This document shows positions 18,973 through 32,000 of a stretch of DNA of 32,000 nucleotides, in pieces. Numbering within the stretch: the first letter of the stretch is position 1; each line of letters opens with the position of its first letter. This DNA is from Candidatus Electronema halotolerans (lineage in GTDB: Bacteria; Desulfobacterota; Desulfobulbia; Desulfobulbales; Desulfobulbaceae): the NCBI GenBank assembly GCA_942493095.1, contig OW818675.1, positions 930,001 to 962,000 of the forward strand, in the 5' to 3' direction. Under the pieces are notes generated by a model. The model searched no databases, had not been told where the DNA came from, and worked only from the letters and a program-made list of their open reading frames with translations. The position numbers were made by a program, and so were the translations under genes.

Positions 18973-19968
18973 ATGATTTCAACCACCTTGCGCCATGACA
19001 TTTCTGCCATGACAGATTCAAGCGTCACCCCTCTCGATTTCAGCGGCCTCAACACCTATTCCCTGCACGACCGTCCTGCCAAAGTGACTGTGACCGACTT
19101 TGCCCAGCCGGTCCGGCCCGGCATGACCGTGCAGGAGCTGATTGCCGCTCTGCCCAAGCAGCTGGCAGGCAATGATTTTCCAGAGCTGGTGGAGCGGATT
19201 GCAACGGCAGTGCAAAACAAGCGGCCTGTTTTGGTCGGCATGGGCGCGCACGTCATCAAGGTCGGTTTGGCCCCGATCTTGATTGATTTGATGGAGCACG
19301 GCATCATTTCCGCCATTGCCATGAACGGGGCAGGCATTATTCATGATGCGGAAATTGCGATGGTGGGCCGCACTTCTGAGGACGTGGCTGACGTGCTTGG
19401 GAGCGGAGCTTTTGGCGCGGCGCGGGAAACCGGCGTGGTTTTGAACGAGGCCATCAATCGTGGCGCGGCAGAGGGCATTGGTCTGGGCGCGGCAGTGGGC
19501 AATCAGCTCCTCCGGCACAATTTTCGCTTCAATGACCACAGTCTGGTGGCACGGGCACGGCGGCTGCATATTCCCGTGACCGTGCATGTGGCAATGGGCA
19601 CGGACATCATTCATATTCATCCTGATGCGAACGGCGCGGCCATTGGTCAGTGCAGTCATCATGATTTCCGGGTCTTCTGCCGTTTGGTCAGCGGACTGGA
19701 AGGCGGGGTGTATCTCAATATTGGCTCGGCAGTGCTGCTGCCAGAGGTTTTTCTCAAGGCCTTGACTGTGGTGCGCAATCTGGGTTATGAGGTGAAGCAG
19801 TTCACCACCGCGAATTTTGATTTCATCCGCGCCTATCGGCCCAGTACCAATGTGGTGCAGCGGCCCACGCTGGAGGGCGGCAAGGGGTTTAATTTCACTG
19901 GGCATCATGAGCTGATGATTCCGCTGCTGGCTGCTGCGGTTTTGGATAAATTGGCAGGTCCTGAATAA
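18973..19968 (+). CDS. Deoxyhypusine synthase-like (DHS-like NAD-binding fold) protein of unknown function
   Basis: The layout VLVGMGAHVIKVGLAP...AMNGAGIIHDAE...IPVTVHVAMGTDIIH...LNIGSAVLLPE resembles bacterial DHS-like proteins, from memory only. Preferred over the antisense 332-aa ORF, which is His/Arg/Gln-rich and low in complexity. Confidence 0.5.
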   Translation: MISTTLRHDISAMTDSSVTPLDFSGLNTYSLHDRPAKVTVTDFAQPVRPGMTVQELIAALPKQLAGNDFPELVERIATAVQNKRPVLVGMGAHVIKVGLAPILIDLMEHGIISAIAMNGAGIIHDAEIAMVGRTSEDVADVLGSGAFGAARETGVVLNEAINRGAAEGIGLGAAVGNQLLRHNFRFNDHSLVARARRLHIPVTVHVAMGTDIIHIHPDANGAAIGQCSHHDFRVFCRLVSGLEGGVYLNIGSAVLLPEVFLKALTVVRNLGYEVKQFTTANFDFIRAYRPSTNVVQRPTLEGGKGFNFTGHHELMIPLLAAAVLDKLAGPE

Positions 19969-20118: not shown

Positions 20119-20802
20119 ATGTCCAAAAAAAAACAATCTCGCGGCAACTGCGTTTTCTGCGGGCGGCAGATGACAAGAGGCGGCTTGGTCAAGCATTTGG
20201 CAAGCTGCGCCGCACGCAAGGAAGCGGTGAGCAAGGCCGACCAGAAACCCGGAAAAGAGCAGACCATCTATCATCTGCAAATCCAAGACGCTTGGGCCGG
20301 TGATTTCTGGCTGCATCTGGAAATGCCCGCTTCAGAAACCTTGGATGAATTGGACAGCTACCTGCGGATAATCTGGCTCGAATGCTGCGGCCATCTCAGC
20401 CAATTTTCTTTTGACAGCCGGGGGTATGAAGAAATAGCAATGAGCAAAAAAGCAGGCTCAGTGTTCAAGCCGGGCGTTGAGCTGCTCCATGTTTATGACT
20501 TCGGCACCTCATCAGAGACAAAGATCAAAGTTGTCGGCGCACGGCAGGGCAAGGCCTTGACAAAGCATTCCATTTATCTGATGGCCCGCAATGAGCCGCC
20601 GGAGGTGAAATGCTGCAAATGCGACGAGCCTGCCGCGTGGCTGTGCATGGAATGCGCGTATGAGGAGACAGGCGCGCCTCTTCTGCTCTGCGAGAAACAT
20701 ATCAAGCCGCATGAGGATGATGAGCATTTCCTGCTGCCGTTTATCAACTCGCCAAGAACTGGACTGTGCGGCTATGACGGGCCAGGAGAGCCGCCGTATT
20801 GA
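20119..20802 (+). CDS. Zinc-finger protein with a possible pRiA4b ORF-3-like (PF07929-like) central domain
   Basis: N-terminal C2HC motif (CVFCGRQM...HLASC). Central YHLQIQDAWAGDFWLHLEMPASETLDELDSYLRIIWLECCGHLSQF resembles the pRiA4b ORF-3 core. The C-terminal Cys/His cluster is CCKCDEPAAWLCMECAY...LCEKHIKPHEDDEH. Confidence 0.45.
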   Translation: MSKKKQSRGNCVFCGRQMTRGGLVKHLASCAARKEAVSKADQKPGKEQTIYHLQIQDAWAGDFWLHLEMPASETLDELDSYLRIIWLECCGHLSQFSFDSRGYEEIAMSKKAGSVFKPGVELLHVYDFGTSSETKIKVVGARQGKALTKHSIYLMARNEPPEVKCCKCDEPAAWLCMECAYEETGAPLLLCEKHIKPHEDDEHFLLPFINSPRTGLCGYDGPGEPPY

Positions 20803-20888
20803 GCTGCGTCCGCAGCTCCAAGGGCCGGGACGCATCAGCATTTGCTTCACCTTTCACCCTTCACCCCTTTCACCTCCTGCCGGAAACA

Positions 20889-22271
20889 ATGAATCTGTCC
20901 GCAAACATGCGCAGCCAAACAAAATATCTGCCTACAGCCCTGATCGCCGCAGGCGCGGCAGTCATGCTCTTTGCCCCTTCGCCGCTGACCAAAGCGGCAG
21001 TGCTGGCCCTGCTCTCCCTTGGCTTCTGGGCCACCGCCCTGATGCCGGAGCATATTACCGCCCTGCTCTTTTTCCTGCTGGCCCTGCTCTTTTCCGTCAC
21101 CAGCTCCGACATAGTCTTTTCCGGCTTCAGCTCCGCTGCAGTCTGGCTGGTCTTTGGCGGTTTAATTATCGGCAGCGCCGTTTCAGCAACAGGTCTGGGC
21201 GCACGGACCGCCCGCGCTGCCGCGTTCTGGCTGCATGGCAGCTATCTGAAAATCATCATCGGCTTAGTGGCGGCCTCACTGCTTTTCAGCTTTTTCATGC
21301 CCTCGGCAATGGGCCGGGTGGTGCTTCTGACCCCGATTGCCCTGTCCATTGCTGATCATTTCGGCTTTCAAGAAGGGCGGAAAGGCCGCACCGGCATCCT
21401 GCTGGCTGTGATCCTTGGCACGTACATTCCCGCCTTCGGCATCCTGCCTGCCAATGTGCCCAACATGGTTTTGGCTGGCATGGCTGAGACCCAGTATCAT
21501 TTTTCCATTCTCTACGGTTCGTACCTGCTTCTCCATTTTCCGCTCCTGAGTCTGAGCAAAGCGGTGCTGATCGTCGGTTTCATTCTTTTTCTTTATCCTG
21601 ATCAGCCTGCAGCCATTGCTGATCAGAAGCAGAGCAAGGCGGAGCCATTTTCCCGCAACGAGCGGATACTGACCGCTGTGCTGTTAGTCATGCTCGTTCT
21701 GTGGATGACGGATTTCCTCCATCATATTTCTCCGGCGTGGATTGCTCTGGGCGGAGCAGTGCTGCTCCTCCTACCGGGCGTGGATATTGTCAGCACAGCC
21801 CAGTTCAACCAGAAAATCAAATGGTCTTCCATTATTTTCGTGGCCGGCATCCTTGGCTTGGGCGGCATGATCAGCAAAACCGGACTGGGCAGCGCAGCAG
21901 CATCAGGTGTCATCAAACTGCTGCCGCTGGCCAAAGAGCAGGATTTTCTCAACTACATGTCTGTCAGCATGGCCTCAGCCTTGGCAGGCATGGCCGCCAC
22001 CCTGCCTGCGGTGCCTGCGGTTTTCACCCCGCTCACGGACAGCCTTGCCCAAGTCACCGGCCTGCCAGTGCCGACCCTGCTCATGATGCAGGTGGTCGGC
22101 TTCTCCACCATCGTCTTTCCCTATCAGGCCCCACCGATTGTGGTCGGGCTGCAAATGGGCGGGGAAAAACCAATGACTGCGGCCAAGATAACCCTGCCCT
22201 TGGCCCTGATCAGCCTCTTTATCCTTCTGCCGCTCAATTATTTTTGGTGGAAAATTCTGGACTGGCTGTGA
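20889..22271 (+). CDS. Anion permease of the ArsB/NhaD-DASS (SLC13-like) superfamily
   Basis: ~460 aa with about 12 hydrophobic segments and DASS-like repeats (FSGFSSAAVWLVFGGLIIGSAV..., GGMISKTGLG). The track start 20799 overlaps the previous gene, so I use ATG 20889 (MNLSANMRSQ...). Confidence 0.65.
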   Translation: MNLSANMRSQTKYLPTALIAAGAAVMLFAPSPLTKAAVLALLSLGFWATALMPEHITALLFFLLALLFSVTSSDIVFSGFSSAAVWLVFGGLIIGSAVSATGLGARTARAAAFWLHGSYLKIIIGLVAASLLFSFFMPSAMGRVVLLTPIALSIADHFGFQEGRKGRTGILLAVILGTYIPAFGILPANVPNMVLAGMAETQYHFSILYGSYLLLHFPLLSLSKAVLIVGFILFLYPDQPAAIADQKQSKAEPFSRNERILTAVLLVMLVLWMTDFLHHISPAWIALGGAVLLLLPGVDIVSTAQFNQKIKWSSIIFVAGILGLGGMISKTGLGSAAASGVIKLLPLAKEQDFLNYMSVSMASALAGMAATLPAVPAVFTPLTDSLAQVTGLPVPTLLMMQVVGFSTIVFPYQAPPIVVGLQMGGEKPMTAAKITLPLALISLFILLPLNYFWWKILDWL

Positions 22272-22417: not shown

Positions 22418-23002
22418 ATGACCAAGAAACTTACGGTGCTGCTCTCAGGCTCTGTCCTGCTGGCCGCACTGACCGCCTCGCCTGGACACAGCTGCGTGGG
22501 CCGGATACTGAATTTTTCCATTGACGGCTCGCCTGAGCAGAAGGCGGCAGGCCAGCTCATGGCCACCTATATCAACGAGCGCACCGGCACCACGGTCAAT
22601 CTGGTGGAAAATTCGCCGACTGAGGACGGCTCCTGTCCTGCTGACACAGACATCTGCATCCAGTATCTCAAGCCCGCCTTGGACGGCATGGGCAGCGAAC
22701 AGCCCCAAGATGAGCAGGAAGCCTACAGCAGGGCCAAGGAATATTATCTGGAAAACAAGCAGATGGTCTGGCTCAAGCCCTTCAGCTTCAAGGGGCCTGT
22801 CCAGCAGGCGGACAGCTCGATAGCTGTGCCGGTCTCTCCCCGCGCTTCTTTGACCAAATTTCCGGTGCTGGATCGGGTGATCAACAAACTGAGCGGCATG
22901 ATCACTGATGACGCGCTGCAAGAGATGATGAACAATCTCCAAGGCAGCAGCGACCCGGCAGTGGCGGCCAAGGAATTCCTCAAGTCCCGCAAACTGATCT
23001 GA
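22418..23002 (+). CDS. Small secreted protein resembling a reduced OpuAC/OpuBC-type (glycine betaine family) substrate-binding domain
   Basis: Signal peptide MTKKLTVLLSGSVLLAALTA. EQKAAGQLMATYINERTG, VWLKPFSF and C-terminal DPAVAAKEFLKSRKLI resemble OpuAC landmarks. At 194 aa it is much shorter than a full binding protein. AGGAG Shine-Dalgarno sequence upstream. Confidence 0.35.
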   Translation: MTKKLTVLLSGSVLLAALTASPGHSCVGRILNFSIDGSPEQKAAGQLMATYINERTGTTVNLVENSPTEDGSCPADTDICIQYLKPALDGMGSEQPQDEQEAYSRAKEYYLENKQMVWLKPFSFKGPVQQADSSIAVPVSPRASLTKFPVLDRVINKLSGMITDDALQEMMNNLQGSSDPAVAAKEFLKSRKLI

Positions 23003-23012
23003 GAGAAAGACC

Positions 23013-23519
23013 ATGCTGAAAAAGCTGATCGTGGCCCTGTTCCTGCTGCTCCTTGCCGCAGGTTCCGCCGCCGCGCACGGGGATATTTCCAACCTGCCGG
23101 ATTCTGTGCAGATCATGCAGTATAAAATGCTGCTCTACATGGACCCTGATGATGCGGAGACCAAAAACAAGCTGGCCATGGTCTATTTCCGCACTGATCA
23201 GCCAGAGTTGGCTGTGCAGGAGCTGAAAGGGGTTCTGGCAAAGGATGCCCATAATTTCAACGCGCTGGATGGCATGGGCGTTCTTCTTCTCCGGCAGAGA
23301 AAAGCGGAGGAGGCTTTGCAATATCTGCAGCAAGCCCTTGCGGTCAATGACAAGGATGTCATGCTTCATGCGCATCTTTCGCTGGCCTATGAGCAGCTTG
23401 GTCAGGCTGATCAAGCCGCCGCATCGCTGAAAAAAGCGAAAGAATTGTCTTCCGGCCCGAATGGTGCTGCGGCAATCGAGAAGGAAATCAAGCTGATAAA
23501 AGGCGGTCCCGCAAAATAG
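23013..23519 (+). CDS. Secreted TPR-repeat protein
   Basis: Signal peptide MLKKLIVALFLLLLAAGSAAA, then TPR-like repeats (LAMVYFRTDQPELAVQELKGVLAKDAHNFNAL..., ALQYLQQALAVNDKDVMLHAHLSLAYEQLGQADQAAASLKKA). Confidence 0.7.
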   Translation: MLKKLIVALFLLLLAAGSAAAHGDISNLPDSVQIMQYKMLLYMDPDDAETKNKLAMVYFRTDQPELAVQELKGVLAKDAHNFNALDGMGVLLLRQRKAEEALQYLQQALAVNDKDVMLHAHLSLAYEQLGQADQAAASLKKAKELSSGPNGAAAIEKEIKLIKGGPAK

Positions 23520-23610
23520 CCCTTTTTTTGCCTTGGGACATGTTCGCAATTTCTTGCCGTGCCATATCGGCTGACCACCACCATCAACAGATTCGCTCCA
23601 TAATAATAAC

Positions 23611-24528
23611 ATGAAAAGAATACTGCACGTTGTCTGCATCGCTGTTCTGCTCTCGCTCCAAGCCTGCGGCGGCGACAGCGGCAACAAGGCTGTGGACAGC
23701 AATCTGCCGCCGCTCCGCTTCTGCTTCATGATCTGCGACAGCCGGGAACTGTCAACTGCCCGTTTCGCGCCCTTCACTAAGTATTTGGAAGAAAAGCTGG
23801 GCCGCAAGGTGGAGATGATCCTGAAAAACACCTTTGAGGTCGAAGATCTGGCCAAAAAAAAGGAGTTTGATTTCTTCCACGTCAATTCCGTGGTTGCAAT
23901 TTTGCTCAAGGAGCGCTACAAAGCTGATTTTCTTGGCGTGGATATTCAAGGCCGCTATGGCCACAAGGCCACCGGCACCCTGATCGCCCGCAAGGACAGC
24001 GGCATCAAAACGATGGCTGACATCAAGGGCAAGACCTTGGTTTTCGGCCCGGCCTTGGCTCCGTTCGGCTACATGGCGCAGTATTCGATGATGCTGGAAA
24101 ACGGCATTGACCCGGAGACAGACCTGCTCCGCTACGACATTCCGCCGGGTGCGCTCAAGCATGACAAGATCATGTATGGTGTTGATTTCGGCAAATACGA
24201 CGTGGGTGCCGCGCCGCGCATTGATCTTGACCGCATGGTTGCAGGCGACATCATCAACTTGGACGACTACAACATCATTGCCGAGAGCGAGCAGATGCCC
24301 TATTGCACGGTCGGCGCGCTGCCTCATGTTGATCCTGAGCTGAAAAACAAGGTCAAAGACCTGATCCTCAACCTGAAAAAAGACGAGACCGCTTTAGTTG
24401 ATGGCGAAGTGCTGAAAGTCCTCAAGCGGATGGGTTTGGACGGTTTTGCCCCGGCAGTGGACAGCGAGTATGACATCATCCGGGAGAAGCTCAAGCTCTG
24501 CAACATGGCTCCCTACACTAAATATTGA
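23611..24528 (+). CDS. PhnD-like (phosphate/phosphonate-type) periplasmic substrate-binding lipoprotein, with no cognate permease or ATPase nearby
   Basis: Lipobox LLSLQAC. Overall PhnD/PBP-2-like pattern (LRFCFMI...ARFAPFTKYLEEKLGRKVEM..., GKTLVFGPALAPFGYM, YGVDFGKYDVGA). Confidence 0.6.
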   Translation: MKRILHVVCIAVLLSLQACGGDSGNKAVDSNLPPLRFCFMICDSRELSTARFAPFTKYLEEKLGRKVEMILKNTFEVEDLAKKKEFDFFHVNSVVAILLKERYKADFLGVDIQGRYGHKATGTLIARKDSGIKTMADIKGKTLVFGPALAPFGYMAQYSMMLENGIDPETDLLRYDIPPGALKHDKIMYGVDFGKYDVGAAPRIDLDRMVAGDIINLDDYNIIAESEQMPYCTVGALPHVDPELKNKVKDLILNLKKDETALVDGEVLKVLKRMGLDGFAPAVDSEYDIIREKLKLCNMAPYTKY

Positions 24529-24547
24529 TTTCAAAAGAGGACTCAGC

Positions 24548-25513
24548 ATGAAACGCAGTGTTCTTTTCTTTTTTGCCGCTCTTGCGGCAGTTGCTCTGAG
24601 CTTTCATCCTGCCTTTGCCGCAGAGACGGTGGTCAATAAAGGCGTGATCGACAAGGACACGGTCTGGTCAGGCGATATTTTGATCAAGGGTGATGTGGAA
24701 GTGGCTGAAAATATCACCTTGATCATCATGCCCGGCACCACAGTCCGTTTTGCCAAGATTGAACGCTTTGGCCCGGACAAGCTGTATAACGACAAGGAGA
24801 ACCATTTTGCCCGCGCAGAGATATTTGTCAAGGGCAAGATGCTGGCTCAGGGCAGCAAGGAGAGCCAGATCACGTTCACCAGCGCGGAAAGCAGTCCCAA
24901 GCCCGGCGACTGGAGTTCGCTCAACTTCAGCGGCAGCACCGGCAATATTCTGGAGCACTGTGTGATCATGTATGGCGACACAGCCGTGCATTGCCATTCT
25001 TCACATGTTGTTGTCGCCAATAATGTCTTCAAGCACAACGGCACCGCCTTTGGCTGCAAGAATCTGAAAGACATCCCTGTGCAGACTGTGATGCCGGTTA
25101 TGTACAATCTCTTCACAGAGAATGGCGGCGGCATGATTATTGGCGGCGGTGCTGCTCCGGCAGTCTTTCATAACGAGATCACTGGCAATGAATTTTTTGG
25201 CATCTATGTCAAAAAAGGCGGCTGCTCGGATGTGCGCTTCAACAGCATCAGCAAGAACGGCAAGGGCGTGATTCTCTACGAAGCCAAGAATCTTTTTCTG
25301 CGCGACAACAACATTGCTGACAACATCGACTACAATGTCTCCATGCTGGAAGGGCAGGAGCAGGATTTGGCCTTTCCGCACAACTGGTGGGGCACAGCGG
25401 ATGAGAAGAAAATCCGCGAGAAAGTCATGGACAAAACCAGTGACAGCGGCTTGGGCAAGGCTGACTTGAGCAATTTCTACACATCTCCTGTTGCCGGAGC
25501 AGGAAATATCTGA
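24548..25513 (+). CDS. Secreted right-handed parallel beta-helix repeat protein (NosD/CASH-like)
   Basis: Signal peptide MKRSVLFFFAALAAVALSFHPAFA. PbH1-type repeats are present (VVANNVFKHNGTAFG, MYNLFTENGGGMII, FHNEITGNEFFGIYV, RFNSISKNGKGVIL, LRDNNIADNIDYNV). The terminal HNWWGT motif is common in NosD-like proteins. The track start 24446 overlaps the previous gene, so ATG 24548 is used. Confidence 0.7.
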   Translation: MKRSVLFFFAALAAVALSFHPAFAAETVVNKGVIDKDTVWSGDILIKGDVEVAENITLIIMPGTTVRFAKIERFGPDKLYNDKENHFARAEIFVKGKMLAQGSKESQITFTSAESSPKPGDWSSLNFSGSTGNILEHCVIMYGDTAVHCHSSHVVVANNVFKHNGTAFGCKNLKDIPVQTVMPVMYNLFTENGGGMIIGGGAAPAVFHNEITGNEFFGIYVKKGGCSDVRFNSISKNGKGVILYEAKNLFLRDNNIADNIDYNVSMLEGQEQDLAFPHNWWGTADEKKIREKVMDKTSDSGLGKADLSNFYTSPVAGAGNI

Positions 25514-25518
25514 TAGAC

Positions 25519-26085
25519 TTGCCAACCATGTTGCTTGCTCAGAAACTGTCCGGCAATATTCTGGACATATTGACAAAAGCCGCCTTGGCAGTGCTGACCG
25601 CAGTCATGCTGGTCATGCTGGTTCAGCACGAGCTTGCCGCCCGCAATTCGGCAACTGTGCTGGACAGCAGAGAGCAGGAGCTGCACAAGATTCAGCAGCG
25701 CATGGAATTGGACAGCAAAATCTTTCATGAAGTTGCGGTCTTCTTTGAAGAGCGGCGGTATCGGCAGGCTATGGAAAAATTGAAAGAAGTGCAGACCATG
25801 CATCCCGACAGCTCCACAGCCCTGCTCTGGCAGGCCCGTCTTCAGTATGAGGAAGGCATGGTCGCGGAGTCCTTGGCTGACTATCGGCAGGCAGTGGACA
25901 GCGAGCCAGGTTTTATTGACAGAAAATCGCCGCTCTTTGTCGGCAAGCGCATCAAGGAGAAGGTTGACGAGTCGCAGGAAAAACTCCAGCGGGAAATGCA
26001 GCTCAAGCCGAATGACATGTCCGTCCAAAAAGCTCTTGATGACCTTCTTTATCTGAAGCGGCGGCTGGCCGGCGGATGTGAATAA
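25519..26085 (+). CDS. Single-TM protein with a TPR-like soluble domain
   Basis: TM segment ILTKAALAVLTAVMLVMLV, then helical repeats (RRYRQAMEKLKEVQTMHPDSSTALLWQARLQYEEGMVAESLADYRQAV). The start is TTG 25519 or ATG 25528. The stop directly abuts the yedE ATG. Confidence 0.6.
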   Translation: MPTMLLAQKLSGNILDILTKAALAVLTAVMLVMLVQHELAARNSATVLDSREQELHKIQQRMELDSKIFHEVAVFFEERRYRQAMEKLKEVQTMHPDSSTALLWQARLQYEEGMVAESLADYRQAVDSEPGFIDRKSPLFVGKRIKEKVDESQEKLQREMQLKPNDMSVQKALDDLLYLKRRLAGGCE

Positions 26086-27153
26086 ATGGCGCGTTTGAAA
26101 CTCCCTGACCTTGCCGTCAGCACCGGCATCGTTCTTGGTGCGGGGGCAGTGGTTCTGACTCTGCTCGGCAATCCGACCAATTCCGGCATTTGCATCTCCT
26201 GTTTTTTGGAGAATTTGGCTGGCTCGCTCCAGATGCACGACAGCCTGCGCATGAGTTATGTCAGGCCGGAACTGCTCGGTTTTTTGCTCGGCTCCTTTGT
26301 CACTGCCAAGAAGATGCGCCGCTTCCGGGTCACGGGCGGCTCATCGCCGCTGATCCGCTTTTTGCTCGGCTTGTTCATGATCGTCGGCTGCGGCATTTTT
26401 ATTGGCTGTCCGATCAAAATGATTTTGCGCTTGGCCGCAGGCGACCTGACCGCAATTGCCGCCCTGCTCGGCCTGATGTTTGGCATCTGGCTGGGAGGCC
26501 GCTACATCCGGGCTGGTTCCGTGTTGGATCGGGATAAGGAGCTGCCGCAAATCAACGGCTACATTTTGCCCGGCATTGGCCTGCTCTTGCTGCTTTTTGT
26601 TCTGCTCAAACCGAGCTTTATTGTCCAAGGAGCCACTGGCCCAGGGGCGCAACATGCCAATCTCTGGATTTCGTTAGCTGTTGGGCTGCTGATCGGCGGC
26701 ATGGCCCAGCGTTCTGGTCTCTGCATCACTGGCGGCCTGCGCAACTTCTTTCTTTTCAAAGAGAAAACCCTGCTCTGGGGCATTGTTGCCGCCTTTGCAT
26801 CAGCCTTTTTTGTCTCTCTGATCAGCGGTCAATTCAATCTTGGTTTTTACGATCAGCCGGGTGCGCATCCTGACAATCTGTGGACGTTTCTGGCCATGGT
26901 GCTGGTCGGTTTGGCCGCAGTGATTGTTGATGGCTGCCCGTTCCGCCAGCTCATCAAGGCGGGACAGGGTGATGTGGACGCAGGACTGACCTGCTTTGGC
27001 ATGTTGACCGGCGCGGCGTTTGTGGTAAGCTGGCAGCTCCGCAGCACTTCTGCCGGGCCGGAATTCAACGGCAAGATTGCCACGCTGGCCGGACTGATCT
27101 TCTGTCTGACTGTGGTGCTGGCGTATCGCAGGAAATCTGCGGCAGCACGGTGA
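26086..27153 (+). CDS. yedE: YedE-family putative selenium/sulfur-compound transport membrane protein
   Basis: 355 aa and polytopic, with YedE-family Cys motifs (NSGICISCFLENLAG, RSGLCITGGLRNF, VDGCPFRQL). The ATG follows the upstream stop with no gap. Confidence 0.8.
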   Translation: MARLKLPDLAVSTGIVLGAGAVVLTLLGNPTNSGICISCFLENLAGSLQMHDSLRMSYVRPELLGFLLGSFVTAKKMRRFRVTGGSSPLIRFLLGLFMIVGCGIFIGCPIKMILRLAAGDLTAIAALLGLMFGIWLGGRYIRAGSVLDRDKELPQINGYILPGIGLLLLLFVLLKPSFIVQGATGPGAQHANLWISLAVGLLIGGMAQRSGLCITGGLRNFFLFKEKTLLWGIVAAFASAFFVSLISGQFNLGFYDQPGAHPDNLWTFLAMVLVGLAAVIVDGCPFRQLIKAGQGDVDAGLTCFGMLTGAAFVVSWQLRSTSAGPEFNGKIATLAGLIFCLTVVLAYRRKSAAAR

Positions 27154-27261
27154 AGTTGACTATGCGGTGGACTTCACAAATTCATCTGTTCAACACCCGC
27201 CTTTGTGATGGTGATAGCAAAAGGCGACTTCAATTCTTCACCACATTACATTGAGTAAATT

Positions 27262-27468
27262 ATGAGTACAGGTACAGTGAAGTGGTTTAATGCGGACAAA
27301 GGCTTTGGGTTTATTACTCCAGACGACGGAGGTAAAGACCTGTTTGTCCATCACTCAGAAATCAAGACTGGCGGCGGTTATGCCACGCTCAACGATGGCC
27401 AGAAGGTTGAGTTTGAAGCAGGGCAGGGTAAAAAAGGGCCATGTGCAAATAATGTCAGATCGTTGTAA
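27262..27468 (+). CDS. csp: Cold-shock protein (CspA family)
   Basis: [34 protein letters not shown] carries RNP1 (KGFGFI) and RNP2 (LFVHH). Length 68 aa. GC is lower than the flanking core genes. Confidence 0.95.
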
Positions 27469-27563
27469 TCCGGCGGCATAAGCACATATCCGGCAATCAA
27501 GCCGAGCAGTTAATAGAGGCGCGTTTGCTGCGCACATTGCAACGCGCAGCTTTAATCTTATAC

Positions 27564-27608
27564 CGTTAAGAGTGGTGATCGTTTTGCGCCCACTCTTAAC
27601 GATTTTTT
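27564..27608 (+). terminator. Rho-independent terminator after csp
   Basis: 12-bp perfect stem cgttaagagtgg (27564-27575) / ccactcttaacg (27590-27601), 14-nt loop, then a-tttttt. A smaller hairpin gctgcgc/gcgcagc at 27527-27550 precedes it. Confidence 0.8.
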
Positions 27609-27769
27609 GCAAGCAATGAGTTATTTTTTTAGGCTCTCCGAGTTTTTCTGTGGTTGACAAAATCGGGTGGTGCCCCTGTTGAGTGTTGCTGTCTCGAAAA
27701 TTATGTGATACCGATTGGTTAGCATTACTGAGACAACTACTCCGTAAAGTGAGTTGTGGATTCAACTCG

Positions 27770-27927
27770 CAAGTGCAACTTTTTTTGGTTATCCAAAAAG
27801 CATAGGTTGGCTGGCACTTTGAATACTTCATGTAAATTTTCAATTATTTTCTCTTAGTTAGCGACAAAAGCAAAGTTGTGACACTCCCGTAACTGCCTTT
27901 TCTTGCAACCAAAAAAAGTTGCACTTG
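27770..27927. repeat. 158-bp AT-rich element bounded by 21-bp perfect inverted repeats (MITE-like or long cruciform)
   Basis: caagtgcaactttttttggtt (27770-27790) is the exact reverse complement of aaccaaaaaaagttgcacttg (27907-27927). Weaker complementarity (about 8/12) continues ~11 nt outward. No ORF is credible inside it. It lies 22 nt upstream of the yedE remnant. Confidence 0.85.
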
Positions 27928-27948
27928 GAACTTGAATTCACCGTTTGA

Positions 27949-28062
27949 ATGCTGACCAGCGCGGCCTTTGTCGTGAGCTGGCAGCTCCGCAGTAGCTCCG
28001 GTCGCCGGACCGGAGTTCAACGACAGAATTTTCACTCTGGTTGGGCTGATTGCGTCTCATTA
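27949..28062 (+). pseudogene. yedE: Frameshifted, truncated duplicate of the yedE 3' end
   Basis: Aligns by hand to 27001-27112: 39/44 identical over the first 44 nt and about three quarters overall. It translates as MLTSAAFVVSWQLRSS, then after a 4-nt insertion as AGPEFNDRIFTLVGLI. Intact yedE reads MLTGAAFVVSWQLRSTSAGPEFNGKIATLAGLI. The last ~14 yedE codons are missing. Confidence 0.8.
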
Positions 28063-28069
28063 TAACGAA

Positions 28070-28726
28070 ATGATCCAGATCGATATATTTTGTAGACAGT
28101 GTCAAAAAAATCATCATCAACTTGTGAATGAAAAAGAGTCAATTTCAATACAATGCGAATCTTGTGGAGCTGCGCTTGCATCTATTTCTCCAATTAACGG
28201 ATATGTATACATTCTATCGAATCCATGTATGCCAAATTTAGTCAAGATAGGGTTTACTACACGAAATATTTACGAAAGGATTTCTGAACTTAATTCTTCA
28301 AGCGGCATACCTGAACCTTTTGTGATTGAAGCTGCTTTTTGTAGTATCAACCCTAAAAAGGATGAACAAATAATCCATGCTGAATTAGATAAAAATCGTA
28401 CTAATAGAAATCGTGAGTTTTTTCAATTTGAACCGCTTGATGCAATTGATAAAATAGTAAAAATACTTGAAAAGCAACCTGATTATATTGGGACGAACAG
28501 CATGGTTAACTGTGAAAGACTTCTTCAGAGAAAAAAAGAAGAAGAAAGAATTTTTAAGAAGAAACAGAATTATTTTTTATCTCAAGGCATATTTGCAGAA
28601 GACCCAGGAAGATCAGTTGCTATGTATTCATTTAAATGTATTGGATGTAAAAATAGATTTTATTCCAAATATCCTAAAAACAATAGAACTGCTTGCCCTT
28701 TCTGCTTTTCTTGTGAAATTGAATGA
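28070..28726 (+). CDS. T5orf172/MUG113 (GIY-YIG-like) domain protein flanked by N- and C-terminal zinc ribbons
   Basis: GYVYILSNPCMPNLVKIGFTTRNIYERISELNSS...PFVIEAAF...IIHAELDKNRTNRNREFFQF fits the T5orf172 pattern. The N-terminal zinc ribbon is CRQC...CESC and the C-terminal one is CIGC...CPFC. GC is ~30% (18/60 in a sampled stretch) against ~55-60% in the flanks. Confidence 0.75.
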   Translation: MIQIDIFCRQCQKNHHQLVNEKESISIQCESCGAALASISPINGYVYILSNPCMPNLVKIGFTTRNIYERISELNSSSGIPEPFVIEAAFCSINPKKDEQIIHAELDKNRTNRNREFFQFEPLDAIDKIVKILEKQPDYIGTNSMVNCERLLQRKKEEERIFKKKQNYFLSQGIFAEDPGRSVAMYSFKCIGCKNRFYSKYPKNNRTACPFCFSCEIE

Positions 28727-28863
28727 AAAAATTATGAAATATATTAACTGGATTAAAACATAGCGTTGTTTTTAAAACATGATTTGGACGGCATGCCGCT
28801 TCATGAAATTCCGCACAAGATCATTTATCTGTGCCCTAAATATGTGGACAAAATACAATCATC

Positions 28864-29409
28864 ATGAACTGGTTCAAAAAAAAGGAAAAGCCGCAGGAGC
28901 CGGAAAAGGAAGAGGTCACACGCGGCCTGCTGATCTTTGCTCACCCGACCACAGTCATCGCGGTGGAGGAACTGCTCAAGGACGAGGGATATAAAATTCG
29001 GGTGGTCAGTCCGCCGCCTGCCTACCGCACCGGCTGCGACTTGAGCGTGGAATTTCCGCTGGAAGCGGAAGCCGCCATCACTGAGCTGCTCAATGCAGTC
29101 AAGCTGCATCCGCTTGATGTGGTGCCGATCACCTCGGAAGGCATGGAGCCGCTTCAGTTTGTCCGCAAAAAATGGTATGGCAAATACCTGATGGTCCGGG
29201 CGGCCAACATGAAGATCACCGTAGATACAGAGACCAAGGTCATTGTCAATATCTCTGGCGGCGGCTGCCCGGACGTGCCCTATCTTGCCACGACCATGAT
29301 CGGTAAGCGGCTTGACGAGGCTCCTGCCCCGGACGAAGTCGGCTTCTCCCTTTGCGCCTATTCCCTCAACACTGCCCGGGAAGAGATGATCCGGGAAATC
29401 GGAGCATAA
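28864..29409 (+). CDS. DUF3343 (putative Se/S carrier-like) domain fused to an unidentified ~90-aa C-terminal domain with a GGGCPDVP motif
   Basis: Residues ~20-85 (GLLIFAHPTTVIAVEELLKDEGYKIRVVSPPPAYRTGCDLSVEFPLEAEAAITELL) match the DUF3343 layout, including its conserved Cys. The C-terminal half (KWYGKYLMVRAANMKITVD...NISGGGCPDVPYLATTMIGKRL) is not recognised. Confidence 0.6.
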   Translation: MNWFKKKEKPQEPEKEEVTRGLLIFAHPTTVIAVEELLKDEGYKIRVVSPPPAYRTGCDLSVEFPLEAEAAITELLNAVKLHPLDVVPITSEGMEPLQFVRKKWYGKYLMVRAANMKITVDTETKVIVNISGGGCPDVPYLATTMIGKRLDEAPAPDEVGFSLCAYSLNTAREEMIREIGA

Positions 29410-29411
29410 TC

Positions 29412-30281
29412 ATGCTGTTGTTAGTTGGTGCGGTTCCTGCTGACCGCCTCCCCCTGATCATCGGCCCGGTCTCGCTCACTGACCGGGGCATCAAGATTGA
29501 CGGTCATGAGCTGCCCATCAACCGGGGCAATGAGGCCATGATGAAGGCTGCCTGCCTGATCTGCCAGGAATACGGCGTGGAGCCGCCGGTCGGCATGGTG
29601 GCAGGCGACATTGGCAAGCGCGAAGGCAGCGAGGCAATTTACAAGCACTTGGCCGAGCATCTGCCGACGATGGGGGTCAAGGTGATGACCCTGCATTATG
29701 TGATGCCTGATCTCAAGCTGAATAAGAAGGTGCTGGCCACGGTCGAGACCATGAAGGAAAGCAGGCCTGCTCTGATTGCCGACGCGGGCAGCATGTATGT
29801 GGCCAAGGCGGGCGGCGATGCCAAAATGTACGATGTTTTCACCCCGGACATTGGCGAGGCCACCTTTCTGGCTGATGAGAAGGCCGATCATCCCGCCTAC
29901 ACACGCGGTTTCATCTTCAACATGGAAGATGACGTGCCGGAGCTGATCCGCCGGGCATACATGGGCGGCAACGCGCCCAAGACCATGTTTGTCAAAGGGG
30001 CAGTGGATTATGTCTGCCAAGACGGCGAGATTGTTGACACCATTGCCGAGCCGAGCATTGAGACGATGGAGCCGATTGGCGGCACGGGTGATTTGATCAC
30101 CGGCATGATCAGCGGCCTGATGCACGCTGGCCGCAGTCCGCTCTTAGCCTGCCGCATTGCCGGACGGGTCAACCGGGCTGCTGGCGAGCTGGCCAATCCG
30201 ACCCCGGCCACGCAGGTGGAGGAAATCCTCCGCTGCCTGCCCAAAGCTCTTGCCAAGGTGGAAAAGGAGCTGGGGCTGTGA
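29412..30281 (+). CDS. Stand-alone YjeF_C-like (ribokinase-fold, NAD(P)HX dehydratase-type) protein
   Basis: VFTPDIGEATFLA and EPIGGTGDLITGMISGLMHAG resemble the TPHxGE and GxGDxLxG motifs of YjeF C-terminal domains. ATG 29412 lies 2 nt after the upstream stop. The track start 29352 overlaps the previous gene. Confidence 0.55.
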   Translation: MLLLVGAVPADRLPLIIGPVSLTDRGIKIDGHELPINRGNEAMMKAACLICQEYGVEPPVGMVAGDIGKREGSEAIYKHLAEHLPTMGVKVMTLHYVMPDLKLNKKVLATVETMKESRPALIADAGSMYVAKAGGDAKMYDVFTPDIGEATFLADEKADHPAYTRGFIFNMEDDVPELIRRAYMGGNAPKTMFVKGAVDYVCQDGEIVDTIAEPSIETMEPIGGTGDLITGMISGLMHAGRSPLLACRIAGRVNRAAGELANPTPATQVEEILRCLPKALAKVEKELGL

Positions 30282-30469
30282 GCCGGATGCAGTTCACTGC
30301 TGTGGTCGAATATTGCAAAGACATAGGTCTCTATGTGGGCTATATGCCGCAGTTTCCCGATGCGCACTCGCAAGGGGAAACGCTTGATGAACTGAACCGG
30401 CTGCTTGAAGACGGAGAGCCTTCGTTCAGTTCTGAGTTTGTCGGCACCCAGCAGATTGCCATAGCGTGA
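30278..30469 (+). CDS. hicB: HicB-family (UPF0150-like) antitoxin
   Basis: FTAVVEYCKDIGLYVGYMPQFPDAHSQGETLDELNRLLED fits small HicB antitoxins. GTG 30278 lies 8 nt after AGGAG and overlaps the upstream stop. ATG 30287 is an alternative start. Confidence 0.65.
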   Translation: MSRMQFTAVVEYCKDIGLYVGYMPQFPDAHSQGETLDELNRLLEDGEPSFSSEFVGTQQIAIA

Positions 30470-30633
30470 AGGGAAATATGCCTGCCCTTTCGCACAAGCA
30501 GTTCCGCCACGCTGACGGACGGGCAACCACCGTTCCGTTGCATCAAGGAAGAGACATTTCTCCGATTCTCCTGCGGCAGCTTGCACAAGACATCAGCATC
30601 TCGGTTGAAGAGCTGCTCAATGCAGGAGCCTGA
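30466..30633 (+). pseudogene. hicA: N-terminally shortened HicA-family toxin remnant (51-55 codons, below the track cutoff)
   Basis: Hand translation gives (VKGN)MPALSHKQFRHADGRATTVPLHQGRDISPILLRQLAQDISISVEELLNAGA. This matches the HicA C-terminal core (GSHxxFxHPDGRxxTVPxHxGRDI...). About 15 N-terminal residues before the SH motif appear to be missing. GTG 30466 overlaps the hicB stop. Confidence 0.5.
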
Positions 30634-30636
30634 ACC

Positions 30637-31026
30637 ATGCGCAATAAATTTCTTGGCACTGGCGAACAGGGCTTTCATCCGCTCCGCAAGATGCGGGTTG
30701 CCTTGTCCGGCGCACGCTATGCCGTGCTCCATGATTTTGCGGTCGCCTACAAGACAGTGCTCTCGGTCTTGATTCTGGTGTGCTGTTTTTACTATCGTCA
30801 ATGGCTTGATTTCAGCATGGTCTTGGTCGCCACCGGCCTGATGATGATTTCTGAAATGTTCAACACCACCATAGAAGCTCTGTGCGACTTTCTCGAACCA
30901 CGGGAAAACGAGCGAATCGGTATTATCAAGGATATTTCGGCGGCAGCGGCAGGGATCAGCATCTTAGTCTGGAGCATTGTCCTCTTGCTGGAAGCAATGC
31001 AGGTCTGGCAGAAGCTGGCCGGATGA
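30637..31026 (+). CDS. dgkA: Diacylglycerol kinase (prokaryotic DgkA family)
   Basis: SEMFNTTIEALCD and IKDISAAAAGISILVW are DAGK_prokar motifs. Length 129 aa with 3 TM segments. Confidence 0.85.
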   Translation: MRNKFLGTGEQGFHPLRKMRVALSGARYAVLHDFAVAYKTVLSVLILVCCFYYRQWLDFSMVLVATGLMMISEMFNTTIEALCDFLEPRENERIGIIKDISAAAAGISILVWSIVLLLEAMQVWQKLAG

Positions 31027-31059: not shown

Positions 31060-31677
31060 ATGAGCTGGCAGCACGAAATACGCCACATCCGGCTTCCCCA
31101 AGCAGTCTGGCAGGACATTGTCGCCCATTGCCAAAGAAAGCTGGCCGGTGAGTTCTTGCCCGGTGAAACCCAAGTCAAGCGGGCCTTCGGCATTCTTGTC
31201 GGAGTGAGAAACGGCGACGAGCTGCAGGTGCGGCAGGTCTTGACCATAAAAAAAAACGCCCGCAATGTGGAGCCGATCAAGAGCTTCATGGACAAGCTCA
31301 TGGAGCAGTATGCCATTCCCTCAACCACGCCACTGAATCAGCGCGGCTGGGTCACTGATCCGCAGGAGTTCAAGGAGTGCATGGACTTCTGCAAGCGCGA
31401 GGGCCTGATCATGTTCGGGGCCTATCACATTCATGTGGTGCCGTGGCCCGGCGACCCGCTCCGCGACACCCCGACCGGCTTGGACACCGTGCTGGTCCGA
31501 GGCAGCAAGCTCTTTTCCTTCATCATCTCCATGGTCGATCCTGAGCAGCCCATCATCCGGGCCTTTTATGAAGGCCAGATTGACGCGGAGACCCCCATCC
31601 TGTTCGAGCAGGACGAAGAATCATCTGAACCGCAGAGCATTTCATGGCCGCAGGCGCAGCGACTCAACCTGAACTGA
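31060..31677 (+). CDS. Hypothetical protein with a divergent MPN/JAB (JAMM-like) motif
   Basis: PGETQVKRAFGILVG resembles the E-x-x-G-x-L-x-G region. AYHIHVVPWPGDPLRDTPTGLD resembles HxH...(S/T)xxD, but with a 13-residue spacer instead of 7. I use ATG 31060 rather than the track TTG 31030. Confidence 0.4.
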   Translation: MSWQHEIRHIRLPQAVWQDIVAHCQRKLAGEFLPGETQVKRAFGILVGVRNGDELQVRQVLTIKKNARNVEPIKSFMDKLMEQYAIPSTTPLNQRGWVTDPQEFKECMDFCKREGLIMFGAYHIHVVPWPGDPLRDTPTGLDTVLVRGSKLFSFIISMVDPEQPIIRAFYEGQIDAETPILFEQDEESSEPQSISWPQAQRLNLN

Positions 31678-32000
31678 TTGTTGAATACACCGATCCTTTG
31701 GAAGGCTTCAAGGGCTGGTTGGTCATTGATTCACTCACGCACCGGCTGGCCGCTGGCGGGATGCGGGTGCAGAAAGGTCTGACCTGTGAAGTGGTGCGCC
31801 AGTTAGCCGCAACCATGACCTTGAAGATGCGCATTGCTGGCATCCGGGCGGACGGTGCCAAGTGCGGCATTGACTATGACCCGCGCAGTCCGGGCAAGCA
31901 GGAGGCCCTGTTCCGCTTCATCCGGGCGATCAAGCCGTATCTGCTCGAACGCTATTCAATGGGGCCGGACCTCAACACCACCATGCCGGAGCTGGACGCG
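31644..32000 (+). CDS. Glu/Leu/Phe/Val dehydrogenase family protein, N-terminal 119 codons (continues past the window end)
   Basis: Not in the track because it has no stop in the window. Hand translation gives MAAGAATQPELIVEYTDPLEGFKGWLVIDSLTHRLAAGGMRVQKGLTCEVVRQLAATMTLKMRIAGIRADGAKCGIDYDP... The GGxR and GGAKxGI-type dimerisation and catalytic motifs are present. It overlaps the upstream gene by 34 nt. Confidence 0.7.
   Translation, partial: MAAGAATQPELIVEYTDPLEGFKGWLVIDSLTHRLAAGGMRVQKGLTCEVVRQLAATMTLKMRIAGIRADGAKCGIDYDPRSPGKQEALFRFIRAIKPYLLERYSMGPDLNTTMPELDA

Follow-up and report, generated by a model that had tools for sequence, protein, structure and literature searches.

The gene string at positions 22418 to 30281 of a 32,000-nucleotide stretch of the Candidatus Electronema halotolerans genome (contig OW818675.1, positions 930,001 to 962,000 of the forward strand; hereafter the window) belongs to a supercluster, about 15 genes in size, that is confined to the Desulfobulbia. 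At its centre stand a channel of the YedE family (F), a DUF3343 fusion protein (G) and a protein of the ribokinase superfamily (H). The explanation that we favour, with a probability of roughly 0.4, is that the encoded system imports a chalcogen, either sulfur or selenium, and feeds it into a dedicated pathway forming C–S or C–Se bonds. A sequence-only reading of the window had proposed a seven-gene trans-envelope chalcogen relay, and its overall interpretation stands as far as the co-conserved unit and the YedE–G–H triad are concerned; its analogy with NosD and its estimate of the size of the unit do not. The genes that it listed are indeed conserved together, but the unit is larger: since gene order is conserved in relatives, it also takes in the DASS symporter, J and K in the window, and it extends to ThiS, the lyases and ThiF in related genomes. 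The genes of the unit in the window are as follows (aa, amino acids).

20889..22271, + strand: DASS/SLC13-family anion symporter, first gene of the conserved unit
22418-23002, + strand: A, secreted single-lobe remnant of an OpuAC/ProX-type binding protein, 194 aa
23013-23519, + strand: B, periplasmic TPR protein with TPR repeats and a signal peptide, 168 aa
23611-24528, + strand: C, PhnD/PtxB/ArrX-like lipoprotein (PF12974, lipobox), 305 aa
24548-25513, + strand: D, periplasmic right-handed beta-helix protein (Pfam NosD/Beta_helix, signal peptide), 321 aa
25519-26085, + strand: E, single-pass membrane protein with one transmembrane helix and TPR repeats, 188 aa
26086-27153, + strand: F, YedE-family channel of ten transmembrane helices (TIGR04112), 355 aa
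28864-29409, + strand: G, DUF3343 (PF11823, residues 21-87) fused to a second domain (DUF8182), 181 aa
29412-30281, + strand: H, ribokinase-superfamily (Carb_kinase/YjeF_C-like, Pfam) protein, 289 aa
31030-31677, + strand: J, cluster-specific JAMM/MPN+ metalloprotease with a JAMM motif; alternative start at about 31060
31644..32000, + strand: K, 5' part of a divergent Glu/Leu/Phe/Val-dehydrogenase-family gene, which runs off the window

Genes of relatives are lettered accordingly, with I for ThiS, K for the Glu-dehydrogenase-like gene, L and M for two lyases and N for ThiF; designations such as L005 or L107 are locus labels. The positions, the shared strand and the intergenic gaps of 10, 91, 19, 5 and 0 nucleotides (nt) from A to F and of 2 nt between G and H, all taken from the listing of open reading frames (ORFs), agree with the sequence-only reading, as do the signal peptides and domain calls for A–H, which hold in Pfam, NCBIfam and profile searches against the PDB. 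Its description of E as a membrane-anchored TPR protein is equally sound, with one transmembrane helix and TPR repeats, and no gene for an ABC permease or ATPase occurs within the string, next to it or elsewhere in the conserved cluster. The stop codon of E abuts the start of yedE; if E begins at ATG 25528, the choice of gene callers, the D–E gap is 14 nt rather than 5 nt. The DASS ORF (20799-22271) opens at TTG, and the orthologue length of 458–463 aa suggests the ATG at about 20889. A long ORF for D (355 aa) opens at 24446, its orthologues beginning at MKRS, that is at 24548; residue numbers of D follow the 355-aa ORF. The portion of K within the window comprises its first 119 codons and overlaps the end of J by 34 nt.

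Conservation was assessed by scanning one genome per GTDB species and building a synteny matrix by tblastn, in which loci with enough flanking DNA were counted as assessable. The scan yielded 57 loci, one per species genome, all of them in Desulfobulbia/Thermodesulfobacteriota and distributed over cable bacteria, Desulfocapsa- and Desulfobulbus-labelled metagenome-assembled genomes (MAGs), SEEP-SRB2 and the isolate Desulfobulbaceae bacterium B35, which bears a complete version of the cluster (L035, JBKIWM010000001.1, 2,630,528-2,651,445). The closest locus, from Ca. Electronema sp. KV, shows 72–95% protein identity to the window. The common order is DASS–A–(RcnA/NicO)–B–C–D–E–YedE–(MFS)–G–H–ThiS–J–K–L–M–ThiF, and both order and orientation are held across the 57 species at 35–60% protein identity; lack of such co-conservation had been named in advance as a finding that would count against the relay, and the opposite was observed. 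Presence in assessable loci amounts to 45/46 for A, 47/49 for B, 51/52 for C, 51/52 for E and 47/47 for F. The DASS gene lies upstream of A in the same direction in 27 of 37 assessable loci and in all 15 loci of the cable-bacteria type. In non-cable loci, G through ThiF are adjacent in 84–93% of cases, with ThiS in 25/29 and ThiF in 16/19, and J adjoins G–H in 25/29. The families added to the triad are similarly small: D has 114 homologues in a collection of 5.8 billion proteins, every one of Desulfobulbia type, those with a named organism coming nearly all from Candidatus Electrothrix/Electronema plus one Desulfobulbaceae MAG, and J has 145, all of them from this type of cluster.

These data bear directly on the alternative that the genes form no functional unit, their adjacency being inherited within one family and their products serving unrelated transporters or sensors encoded elsewhere. 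The string of the window is indeed interrupted, between F and G by foreign DNA comprising a csp gene and a low-GC islet and between H and J (30278-31026) by a HicB-like gene without a family match, a HicA toxin gene and a prokaryotic diacylglycerol kinase (DAGK) gene; the latter insert recurs in other Electronema-type loci, with DAGK in seven and HicB in four. The division of the Electrothrix set into three pieces also speaks for this alternative. Nevertheless, order and orientation persist over 57 species at the low identities given above, E and F abut, J and K overlap, G and H are 2 nt apart, A–D show similar abundance in a cable-bacterial proteome, and auxiliary genes are gained and lost along with the core, so that mere inherited adjacency is scarcely credible.

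The core of the cluster was delimited by its simplest occurrences. F matches TIGR04112 (seleno_YedE) with 397 bits against a curated cut-off of 200, over model positions 3-336 of 337, and G is always followed by H. Scanning metagenomes with an alignment of G revealed about 28 contigs with a compact YedE–TusA–G–H module, in which YedE scores 477–501 bits on TIGR04112, the TusA/YedF-like protein has 72–81 aa and selenium_YedF as best match, and the proteins are 40–55% identical to those of the window; none of A–E or I–N occurs in these contigs. As YedE–G–H is thus found alone with TusA, F–G–H can be regarded as an ancestral triad, to which A–E (periplasmic) and I–N (cytoplasmic) are, judging from these comparisons, Desulfobulbia-specific additions. 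The earlier proposal that YedE is the membrane conduit and G and H its cytoplasmic handlers fits this tight triad, which also exists without the periplasmic genes. Among loci with both F and G, 58 contain E only, 28 contain TusA only, none contains both and one contains neither; TusA is absent from the window and from 58/58 E-containing loci. This mutual exclusion indicates that E holds the place that TusA has in the simpler module.

The residues conserved at a threshold of at least 95% across 36–61 orthologues per family include a series of potentially reactive ones. A has an invariant Cys26 (CVGR) at or next to its mature N-terminus, together with an invariant ERTGT motif. In B, the invariant His22 forms the mature N-terminus (AxA followed by HG) in 54/54 orthologues, and His121 is also invariant. 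Besides the lipobox Cys19, C retains Cys42 and Cys232, and D retains C172, H182xH184 and NWWG. E ends in a C-terminal tail, RRxAGGCE, that is invariant in 54/54 orthologues. Cys36, 39, 102, 108, 213 and 284 of F are invariant, as are Cys58, the DUF3343 cysteine, and the ISGGGC135PD motif of G.

Two of these positions are exchanged for in-frame TGA codons in certain relatives. At residue 232 of C, a TGA is found in two lineages, L062 (9553) and L009 (9615), with the reading frame conserved beyond it; both C proteins extend over their full length past the TGA and share 76% identity. At Cys36 of YedE, a TGA occurs in L124 (774), again with a conserved frame beyond. C from L062 and L009 and YedE from L124 are therefore candidate new selenoproteins, one of them a predicted periplasmic lipoprotein, and these pairs of cysteine and selenocysteine (Cys/Sec) mark reactive residues. 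A hairpin 17–19 nt downstream of the TGA is common to L062 and L009; as a selenocysteine insertion sequence (SECIS)-like element after the TGA of C, it did not differ statistically from shuffled sequences. The invariant terminal Cys and His residues and the Cys-to-Sec exchanges would fit a covalent chalcogen relay.

What the analysis establishes is the gene content of the cluster, its synteny and distribution, the conserved residues, the Cys/Sec pairs and its expression in cable bacteria. The favoured explanation can be framed as a route across the envelope, of which we infer the substrate, the direction of flow and each transfer step. The lipoprotein C would capture a periplasmic chalcogen, be it an oxyanion of sulfur or selenium or else an adduct of the persulfide or selenide type, by combining a binding fold of the phosphite/arsenite type with the reactive Cys/Sec232. 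Further handling may fall to the secreted proteins A, with its N-terminal Cys, B, with its N-terminal His, and D, a beta-helix with Cys and HxH. The chalcogen would then pass through the Cys-lined pore of YedE with the assistance of the membrane-tethered E, the GGC tail of which could replace TusA, and would be received in the cytoplasm by the two invariant cysteines of G, with the presumably ATP-using H alongside. Its consumption is attributed to the clade-specific pathway comprising the JAMM hydrolase, the dehydrogenase-like enzyme, two CMLE/XcbD-type lyases and, in relatives, ThiS and ThiF; a C–S (or C–Se) bond might be formed on a carbon skeleton of acidic character, which the DASS symporter may import, to yield a specialized small thiol or selenol. 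The direction is suggested by relatives: the YeeE/YedE relatives characterized according to PMC13047784 and PMC13293266 (citing Tanaka 2020 and Ikei 2024) are all importers, for which reason YedE–G–H is read as importing. The most economical, if still tentative, account is that the triad imports and that the Desulfobulbia acquired a periplasmic front end, made up of proteins with terminal Cys or His and a Cys/Sec lipoprotein and devoid of an ABC transporter, and a cytoplasmic back end, by which the chalcogen would be built into a small acidic molecule.

A variant of the cluster supports the association of the transport module with C–S(e) bond formation. In L107 (604-11454) and L109, the order is ArsP-type permease–A–C–E–YedE–PALP enzyme–class III aminotransferase–YggS-like–G–H, with sugar transferases and a CDF metal exporter after H in the L107 variant, which is without B, D and the ThiS/JAMM/lyase set. 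The PALP, aminotransferase and YggS-like genes between F and G suggest another C–S(e) bond-forming module inside the transport module.

The same core also lends itself to an explanation by selenium acquisition only, in which YedE–G–H, as predicted, takes up selenium, A–E are accessories for scavenging scarce selenium in sulfidic sediment, J–N and the neighbouring pathway genes do a separate job, and the imported selenium serves general selenoprotein and selenouridine synthesis. The TIGR04112 scores of F and of the simple-module YedEs point in this direction, as does the selenium_YedF-like partner of the latter. DUF3343 is a proposed Se/S carrier and YedE occurs almost only in SelD-containing organisms (PMC5322559), C weakly matches TIGR04553 (putative selenate-binding protein), the Cys/Sec pairs show that selenocysteine is used in these organisms, and G–H and J–K–L are physically apart in Electrothrix. 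On the other hand, J is as small and clade-restricted a family as D and adjoins G–H in most non-cable loci, an adjacency that, at 45–60% protein identity, is hard to square with unrelated genes. A second C–S(e) bond-forming module lies between F and G in L107, the embedded nickel and MFS exporters have no role in selenium uptake, and the selenium role of TIGR04112 is itself only a prediction. We regard selenium acquisition alone as possible, if rather unlikely.

Several observations weigh against import into a bond-forming pathway as well. The 'selenium' label of TIGR04112 rests on comparative genomics only (PMC5322559), and a high-affinity sulfur importer is hardly needed in sulfidic sediment. 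The embedded RcnA-type and MFS exporters and the extra beta-helix genes point to export or periplasmic assembly over plain import. The charges flanking the transmembrane helix of E are nearly balanced, which leaves its topology ambiguous, such that the tail cysteine may lie on either side of the membrane. The search with the fold of G against the PDB returned only generic ACT/ferredoxin-like matches (TM-score of about 0.28) and was uninformative. The set is split in cable bacteria: in the marine Ca. Electrothrix aestuarii it occupies three places, DASS–A to F, G–H, and J–K–L with a ferredoxin gene, and ThiS, lyase M and ThiF were not found adjoining the set in Electrothrix. Likewise, ThiS was not detected by tblastn (E ≤ 10) in the window or in Electronema-type loci, and the window ends in K, before any position at which ThiF would stand. 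Owing to the split set and the want of an adjoining ThiS, the cytoplasmic pathway may differ in cable bacteria.

The exporters invite the converse proposal of an outward flow, in which a cytoplasmic thiolated or thiocarboxylated ligand and nickel or cobalt are exported, the ligand via YedE or an MFS protein and the metal via RcnA/NicO, and A–E assemble a periplasmic metal–thiolate or metal–dithiolene; in cable bacteria the product might be the nickel ethene-tetrathiolate oligomers (NiBiD) held in the conductive fibres, for which no biosynthetic genes are known (PMC13534509). At least eight non-cable loci carry a Ni/Co efflux gene of the RcnA/NicO type (177 bits, cut-off 195) in the interval from A to B, the loci with such a gene being L068 (3073-4092), L007 (7386-8276), L008, L038, L041, L046, L052, L059, L061, L084, L098 and L104. 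In the two loci in which the His-rich loop was read, its length is about 125 aa in L068 and about 85 aa in L007, with about 50 and 35 His, respectively. Expansion of the RcnA loop to 100–123 aa with 33–53 His has been presented as peculiar to cable bacteria, and rcnA was reported to be absent from other Desulfobulbales (PMC11247825); the cluster-embedded RcnA genes with predicted long loops in non-cable Desulfobulbia appear at odds with this confinement. MFS exporters stand between F and G in at least seven loci, some versions of which also bear extra beta-helix genes, and the N-terminal His of B and the HxH of D resemble metal sites.

The occurrence and expression of the genes in cable bacteria speak for the favoured import reading and bear on outward flow as well. 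According to the supplements of PMC13293266, L, K, J, H, G, F, D, C, B, A and the SLC13 permease belong to the core of seven cable-bacteria genomes. The accessions, CAK8719629–CAK8719725 in E. aureum GS, ordered as in L019, with the paired Electrothrix communis RB accessions WLE95387-388, 95436-442 and 95728-730, were matched to genes by annotation and order rather than by sequence. In the E. aureum proteome of the same supplements, intensity-based absolute quantification (iBAQ) values are 3.8e7 for C, 3.1e7 for A, 2.8e7 for D, 1.2e7 for H, 9.9e6 for B and 3.0e6 for the hypothetical protein between F and D (E), the values for the ribosomal proteins S13 and S12 being 3.8e7 and 2.8e7, respectively; the cluster genes are not discussed in that paper. 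That all cable bacteria keep these genes, that A–D are abundant periplasmic proteins and that the non-cable taxa with the cluster, almost all of them uncultured, have never been examined for NiBiD would all be compatible with an outward flow. Against it, about 39 non-cable species bear the cluster, often in a more complete form than in cable bacteria, the NiBiD Raman signature is known from cable bacteria only (PMC13534509), and ThiS, M and ThiF are lacking at the cable-bacterial locus. Moreover, the characterized YedE/YeeE relatives all import, binding-protein folds such as those of A and C usually serve uptake or sensing, and no confident route leads from these enzymes to an ethene-tetrathiolate ligand. 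Outward flow is, in our estimation, unlikely.

A more specific and quite improbable extension is that the cluster is the assembly line, or its ancestral form, for the NiBiD of cable bacteria and for kindred conductive metal–thiolate structures in uncultured Desulfobulbia such as SEEP-SRB2. In this speculative scheme, YedE–G–H together with the JAMM protein, dehydrogenase and lyases would provide the sulfur-rich ligand and the RcnA-type exporter the nickel, with periplasmic assembly or templating of the complex falling to the abundant secreted proteins A–D and the Cys-tailed E.

The family assignments were examined protein by protein. The DASS protein scores 112 bits on Pfam Na_sulph_symp and 118 bits on TIGR00785. 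The single sequence of A has no Pfam match, and a profile of 20 orthologues detects binding proteins of the OpuBC/OpuCC/ProX/EgtUC type in the PDB (E 1e-22), aligned to chain residues 27-125 and 230-289 only; about 100 residues of lobe 2 are lacking, leaving lobe 1 in place of the two-lobe architecture, and the earlier label of an OpuAC-like 'mini-protein' is apt. C scores 145 bits on PF12974 and has a textbook lipobox, LQAC, but it falls below the cut-offs of the PhnD-type models (83 against 261 bits on TIGR03431 and 73 against 112 bits on TIGR01098). Its nearest PDB entry is PtxB (E 4e-14), and the ligands of its nearest solved relatives, PtxB, PhnD, ArrX and HtxB, are phosphite, phosphonate or arsenic oxyanions.

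D matches Pfam NosD (51 bits) and Beta_helix (46 bits), and its AlphaFold2 model (pLDDT 89) is a right-handed beta-helix; together with the signal peptide, this makes D a periplasmic beta-helix protein. The analogy with NosD drawn in the sequence-only reading proved weak. The top fold matches of D are the mannuronan C5-epimerases AlgG/AlgE (E 7e-6, TM-score 0.46–0.50), NosD (7o0y) ranks only 37th (E 0.019), and no NosD chain was found by sequence when the D profile was searched against the PDB. Membership of the NosD family was thus rejected: D scores 24.9 bits on TIGR04247 against a cut-off of 300, AlgG/AlgE are better fold matches, and NosF/NosY, NosL and NosZ are missing both from the window and from the annotated related loci. 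The label 'NosD-like' denotes a beta-helix of generic type. In an exhaustive profile search, the D module proved to be widespread among giant surface proteins (629 representatives at E ≤ 1e-30); stand-alone orthologues, about 320 aa long, amounted to a handful, and the search gave no functional clue.

The fold of D raises the further alternative that the cluster modifies or secretes an envelope polysaccharide, with D as an AlgG-like enzyme and B and E as AlgK/PelB-like scaffolds acting with Wzz/Wza neighbours; YedE–G–H might then supply sulfur for a sulfated or thiolated polymer. About 30 species loci have a GNVR/Wzz co-polymerase gene, mostly in divergent orientation, immediately upstream of DASS/A, and about 15 have a Wza-like Poly_export gene by the cluster (examples are L005, 5399-7581, and L003, 4640-6007); both are absent from the window and from L010. 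These neighbours, the AlgG/AlgE matches, the sugar transferases after H in L107 and the abundance of D-like modules in giant surface proteins would agree with such a function. Nevertheless, the conserved co-directional unit contains no glycosyltransferase or synthase, the GNVR gene is mostly divergent and is missing from the window and L010, and D has no identified epimerase catalytic motif, its conserved residues being Cys and His. The binding-protein folds, the Cys/Sec pair of C and the mutual exclusion of E and TusA would also be left unexplained, and a polysaccharide function is very improbable.

On the cytoplasmic side, G was modelled with AlphaFold2 at a pLDDT of 84. H scores 43 bits on Carb_kinase (cut-off 27) and has an intact, invariant GGTGD motif, but it lies below the cut-off for NAD(P)HX dehydratase (32.5 against 129.85 bits on TIGR00196); its profile finds only the C-terminal part of Nnr in the PDB (E 3e-7) and, weakly, ThiM. 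J reaches 21.0 bits on Pfam JAB, just under the cut-off of 22.5, and its JAMM motif (E46, H133xH135, D146) is complete and at least 95% conserved in 36 orthologues; it is orthologous to the gene of about 190 aa that follows ThiS in relatives. The K fragment of the window is 75% identical over 114 aa to K of L005, and K shows only distant similarity to glutamate dehydrogenase. L and M (Lyase_1/ADSL_C) belong to the CMLE/Tad1/XcbD branch of the fumarate-lyase superfamily, with a 'fumarate lyase', Tad1 and CMLE as the nearest solved structures. In relatives, ThiF is MoeB-like and ThiS ends in AGG.

Comparison with known systems places the core within a module type that is known, though only by prediction. 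The TIGR04112 seleno_YedE module (Lin et al. 2015, PMC5322559) is predicted to transport selenium with a TusA/YedF-like protein and DUF3343. It is matched here in that the model cut-off is passed, a DUF3343 protein follows YedE and YedE–G–H occurs with TusA in the metagenome contigs; the window differs in having E with its GGC tail for TusA and four secreted proteins plus DASS before YedE, and clusters of its type differ in the JAMM/dehydrogenase/lyase (and ThiS/ThiF) pathway after the triad. TsuA/TsuB (YeeE/YeeD) and the YTD system resemble the cluster in using a channel with pore cysteines that passes sulfur species to a cytoplasmic Cys carrier, but on the TsuA model, with its cut-off of 645, F scores no more than 32 bits. 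The YTD cluster (YeeE–TusA–DsrEFH type II) occurs in the same organisms, the Desulfobulbales (PMC13293266, PMC13047784). Identity with it was rejected, as it forms a separate cable-bacterial locus (CAK8715254-279 as against CAK8719629-725) of other composition, and the window contains no TusA or DsrE-like genes.

The NosD/NosDFY–NosL system, which matures the copper-sulfide centre of N2O reductase, likewise encodes a periplasmic right-handed beta-helix along with envelope trafficking proteins, and D matches the Pfam NosD repeat model; the window differs in its lack of NosF, NosY, NosL and NosZ and in a TIGR04247 score below the cut-off. Sulfur carrier proteins may present cysteines on C-terminal arms, as in the GGCGG end of SoxY and the penultimate Cys of DsrC. 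E is similar in its glycine-flanked Cys at the extreme C-terminus (AGGCE), but it is a membrane TPR protein with neither the immunoglobulin-like fold of SoxY nor the fold of DsrC, and it has no adjacent Sox or Dsr partners.

For the attached pathway, the JAMM-dependent thiocarboxylate systems CysO/Mec+, HcyS/HcyD, QbsCDE and Cxm of chuangxinmycin (PMC5925218) share with the relatives of the window a ThiS-like protein with a GG end, a MoeB/ThiF-type E1 and a JAMM protein; the cluster differs in that its putative C–S bond-forming partners belong to the fumarate-lyase family and are not pyridoxal-phosphate enzymes, and ThiS and ThiF are absent from the window and were not found in Electronema-type loci. 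For L and M, a parallel is offered by the XcbC/XcbD enzymes of bacterial coenzyme M synthesis, members of the fumarate-lyase superfamily. XcbD is the 3-sulfopropionylcysteine synthase, which adds a thiol to an enoate (cysteine to sulfoacrylate): L and M score 414–449 bits on its model, below the 600-bit cut-off, and pass no other model cut-off either, and the cluster has no ComA/XcbB and no XcbE.

Literature searches returned no description of the cluster, of DUF8182 or of a link between YedE and a kinase-fold protein, in agreement with the earlier statement that no described system of such composition was known; nor did the literature searched contain the H partner, the exchange of E for TusA, the periplasmic set, the Cys/Sec lipoprotein or the attached pathway. 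Few parts of sulfur and selenium trafficking are as poorly understood as the YedE family and DUF3343, and the cluster supplies these two with defined partners: the kinase-fold H with the DUF3343 fusion, the Cys-tailed E for TusA, the Cys/Sec lipoprotein C and a putative C–S bond-forming pathway. The nickel–sulfur conductive material of cable bacteria is without known biosynthetic genes, and the genes of the cluster are core and well expressed there. Whether or not the nickel link proves true, a covalent relay that handles chalcogens in the periplasm and needs no ABC transporter would represent a novel transport architecture, and the isolate B35, with its complete version, makes experiments possible.

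Some features of the window lie beside these subjects. A degenerate second yedE 3' end is present at 27944-28060, about 950 nt downstream of the original at 26996-27110; the copies are alignable over about 115 nt and 86% identical over 49 nt, and the csp gene (27262-27468) stands between them. The duplication looks like an insertion at the end of yedE that carried in a replacement 3' end. In the product of the islet gene (28070-28726), Pfam recognizes a T5orf172/MUG113 domain (61 bits), and the PADLOC model of the candidate defence family PDC-S57 scores 99.5 bits. The GC content of the islet is about 36%, compared with about 56% in the surroundings, and BLAST against L010, the closest relative, found no counterpart of the gene, which probably represents a mobile defence gene that entered the space separating yedE from G.

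Just upstream of DASS, two ORFs (18973-19968, 331 aa, and 20119-20802, 227 aa) gave no match in Pfam, NCBIfam or PADLOC and no counterpart in related loci; the many Cys pairs of the 227-aa product suggest a zinc-ribbon-like protein. The thiC gene and a ThiD2–ThiE fusion (6625-8945, − strand), about 14 kb upstream of the cluster, are the only other sulfur-cofactor genes of the window and are unrelated to the cluster. Neither the window nor any of seven related loci matched a riboswitch or another RNA family in Rfam, and the window contains no tRNA genes; promoter and terminator scans gave counts equal to those of shuffled sequences and are thus uninformative on operon structure. In the deep-sea MAG locus L008 (1-3641, 13785-18894), the cluster lies beside genes for a P-II regulator and nitrogenase-like proteins and is followed by genes for a PEMT-like protein and for three more beta-helix proteins of 391, 350 and 958 aa.

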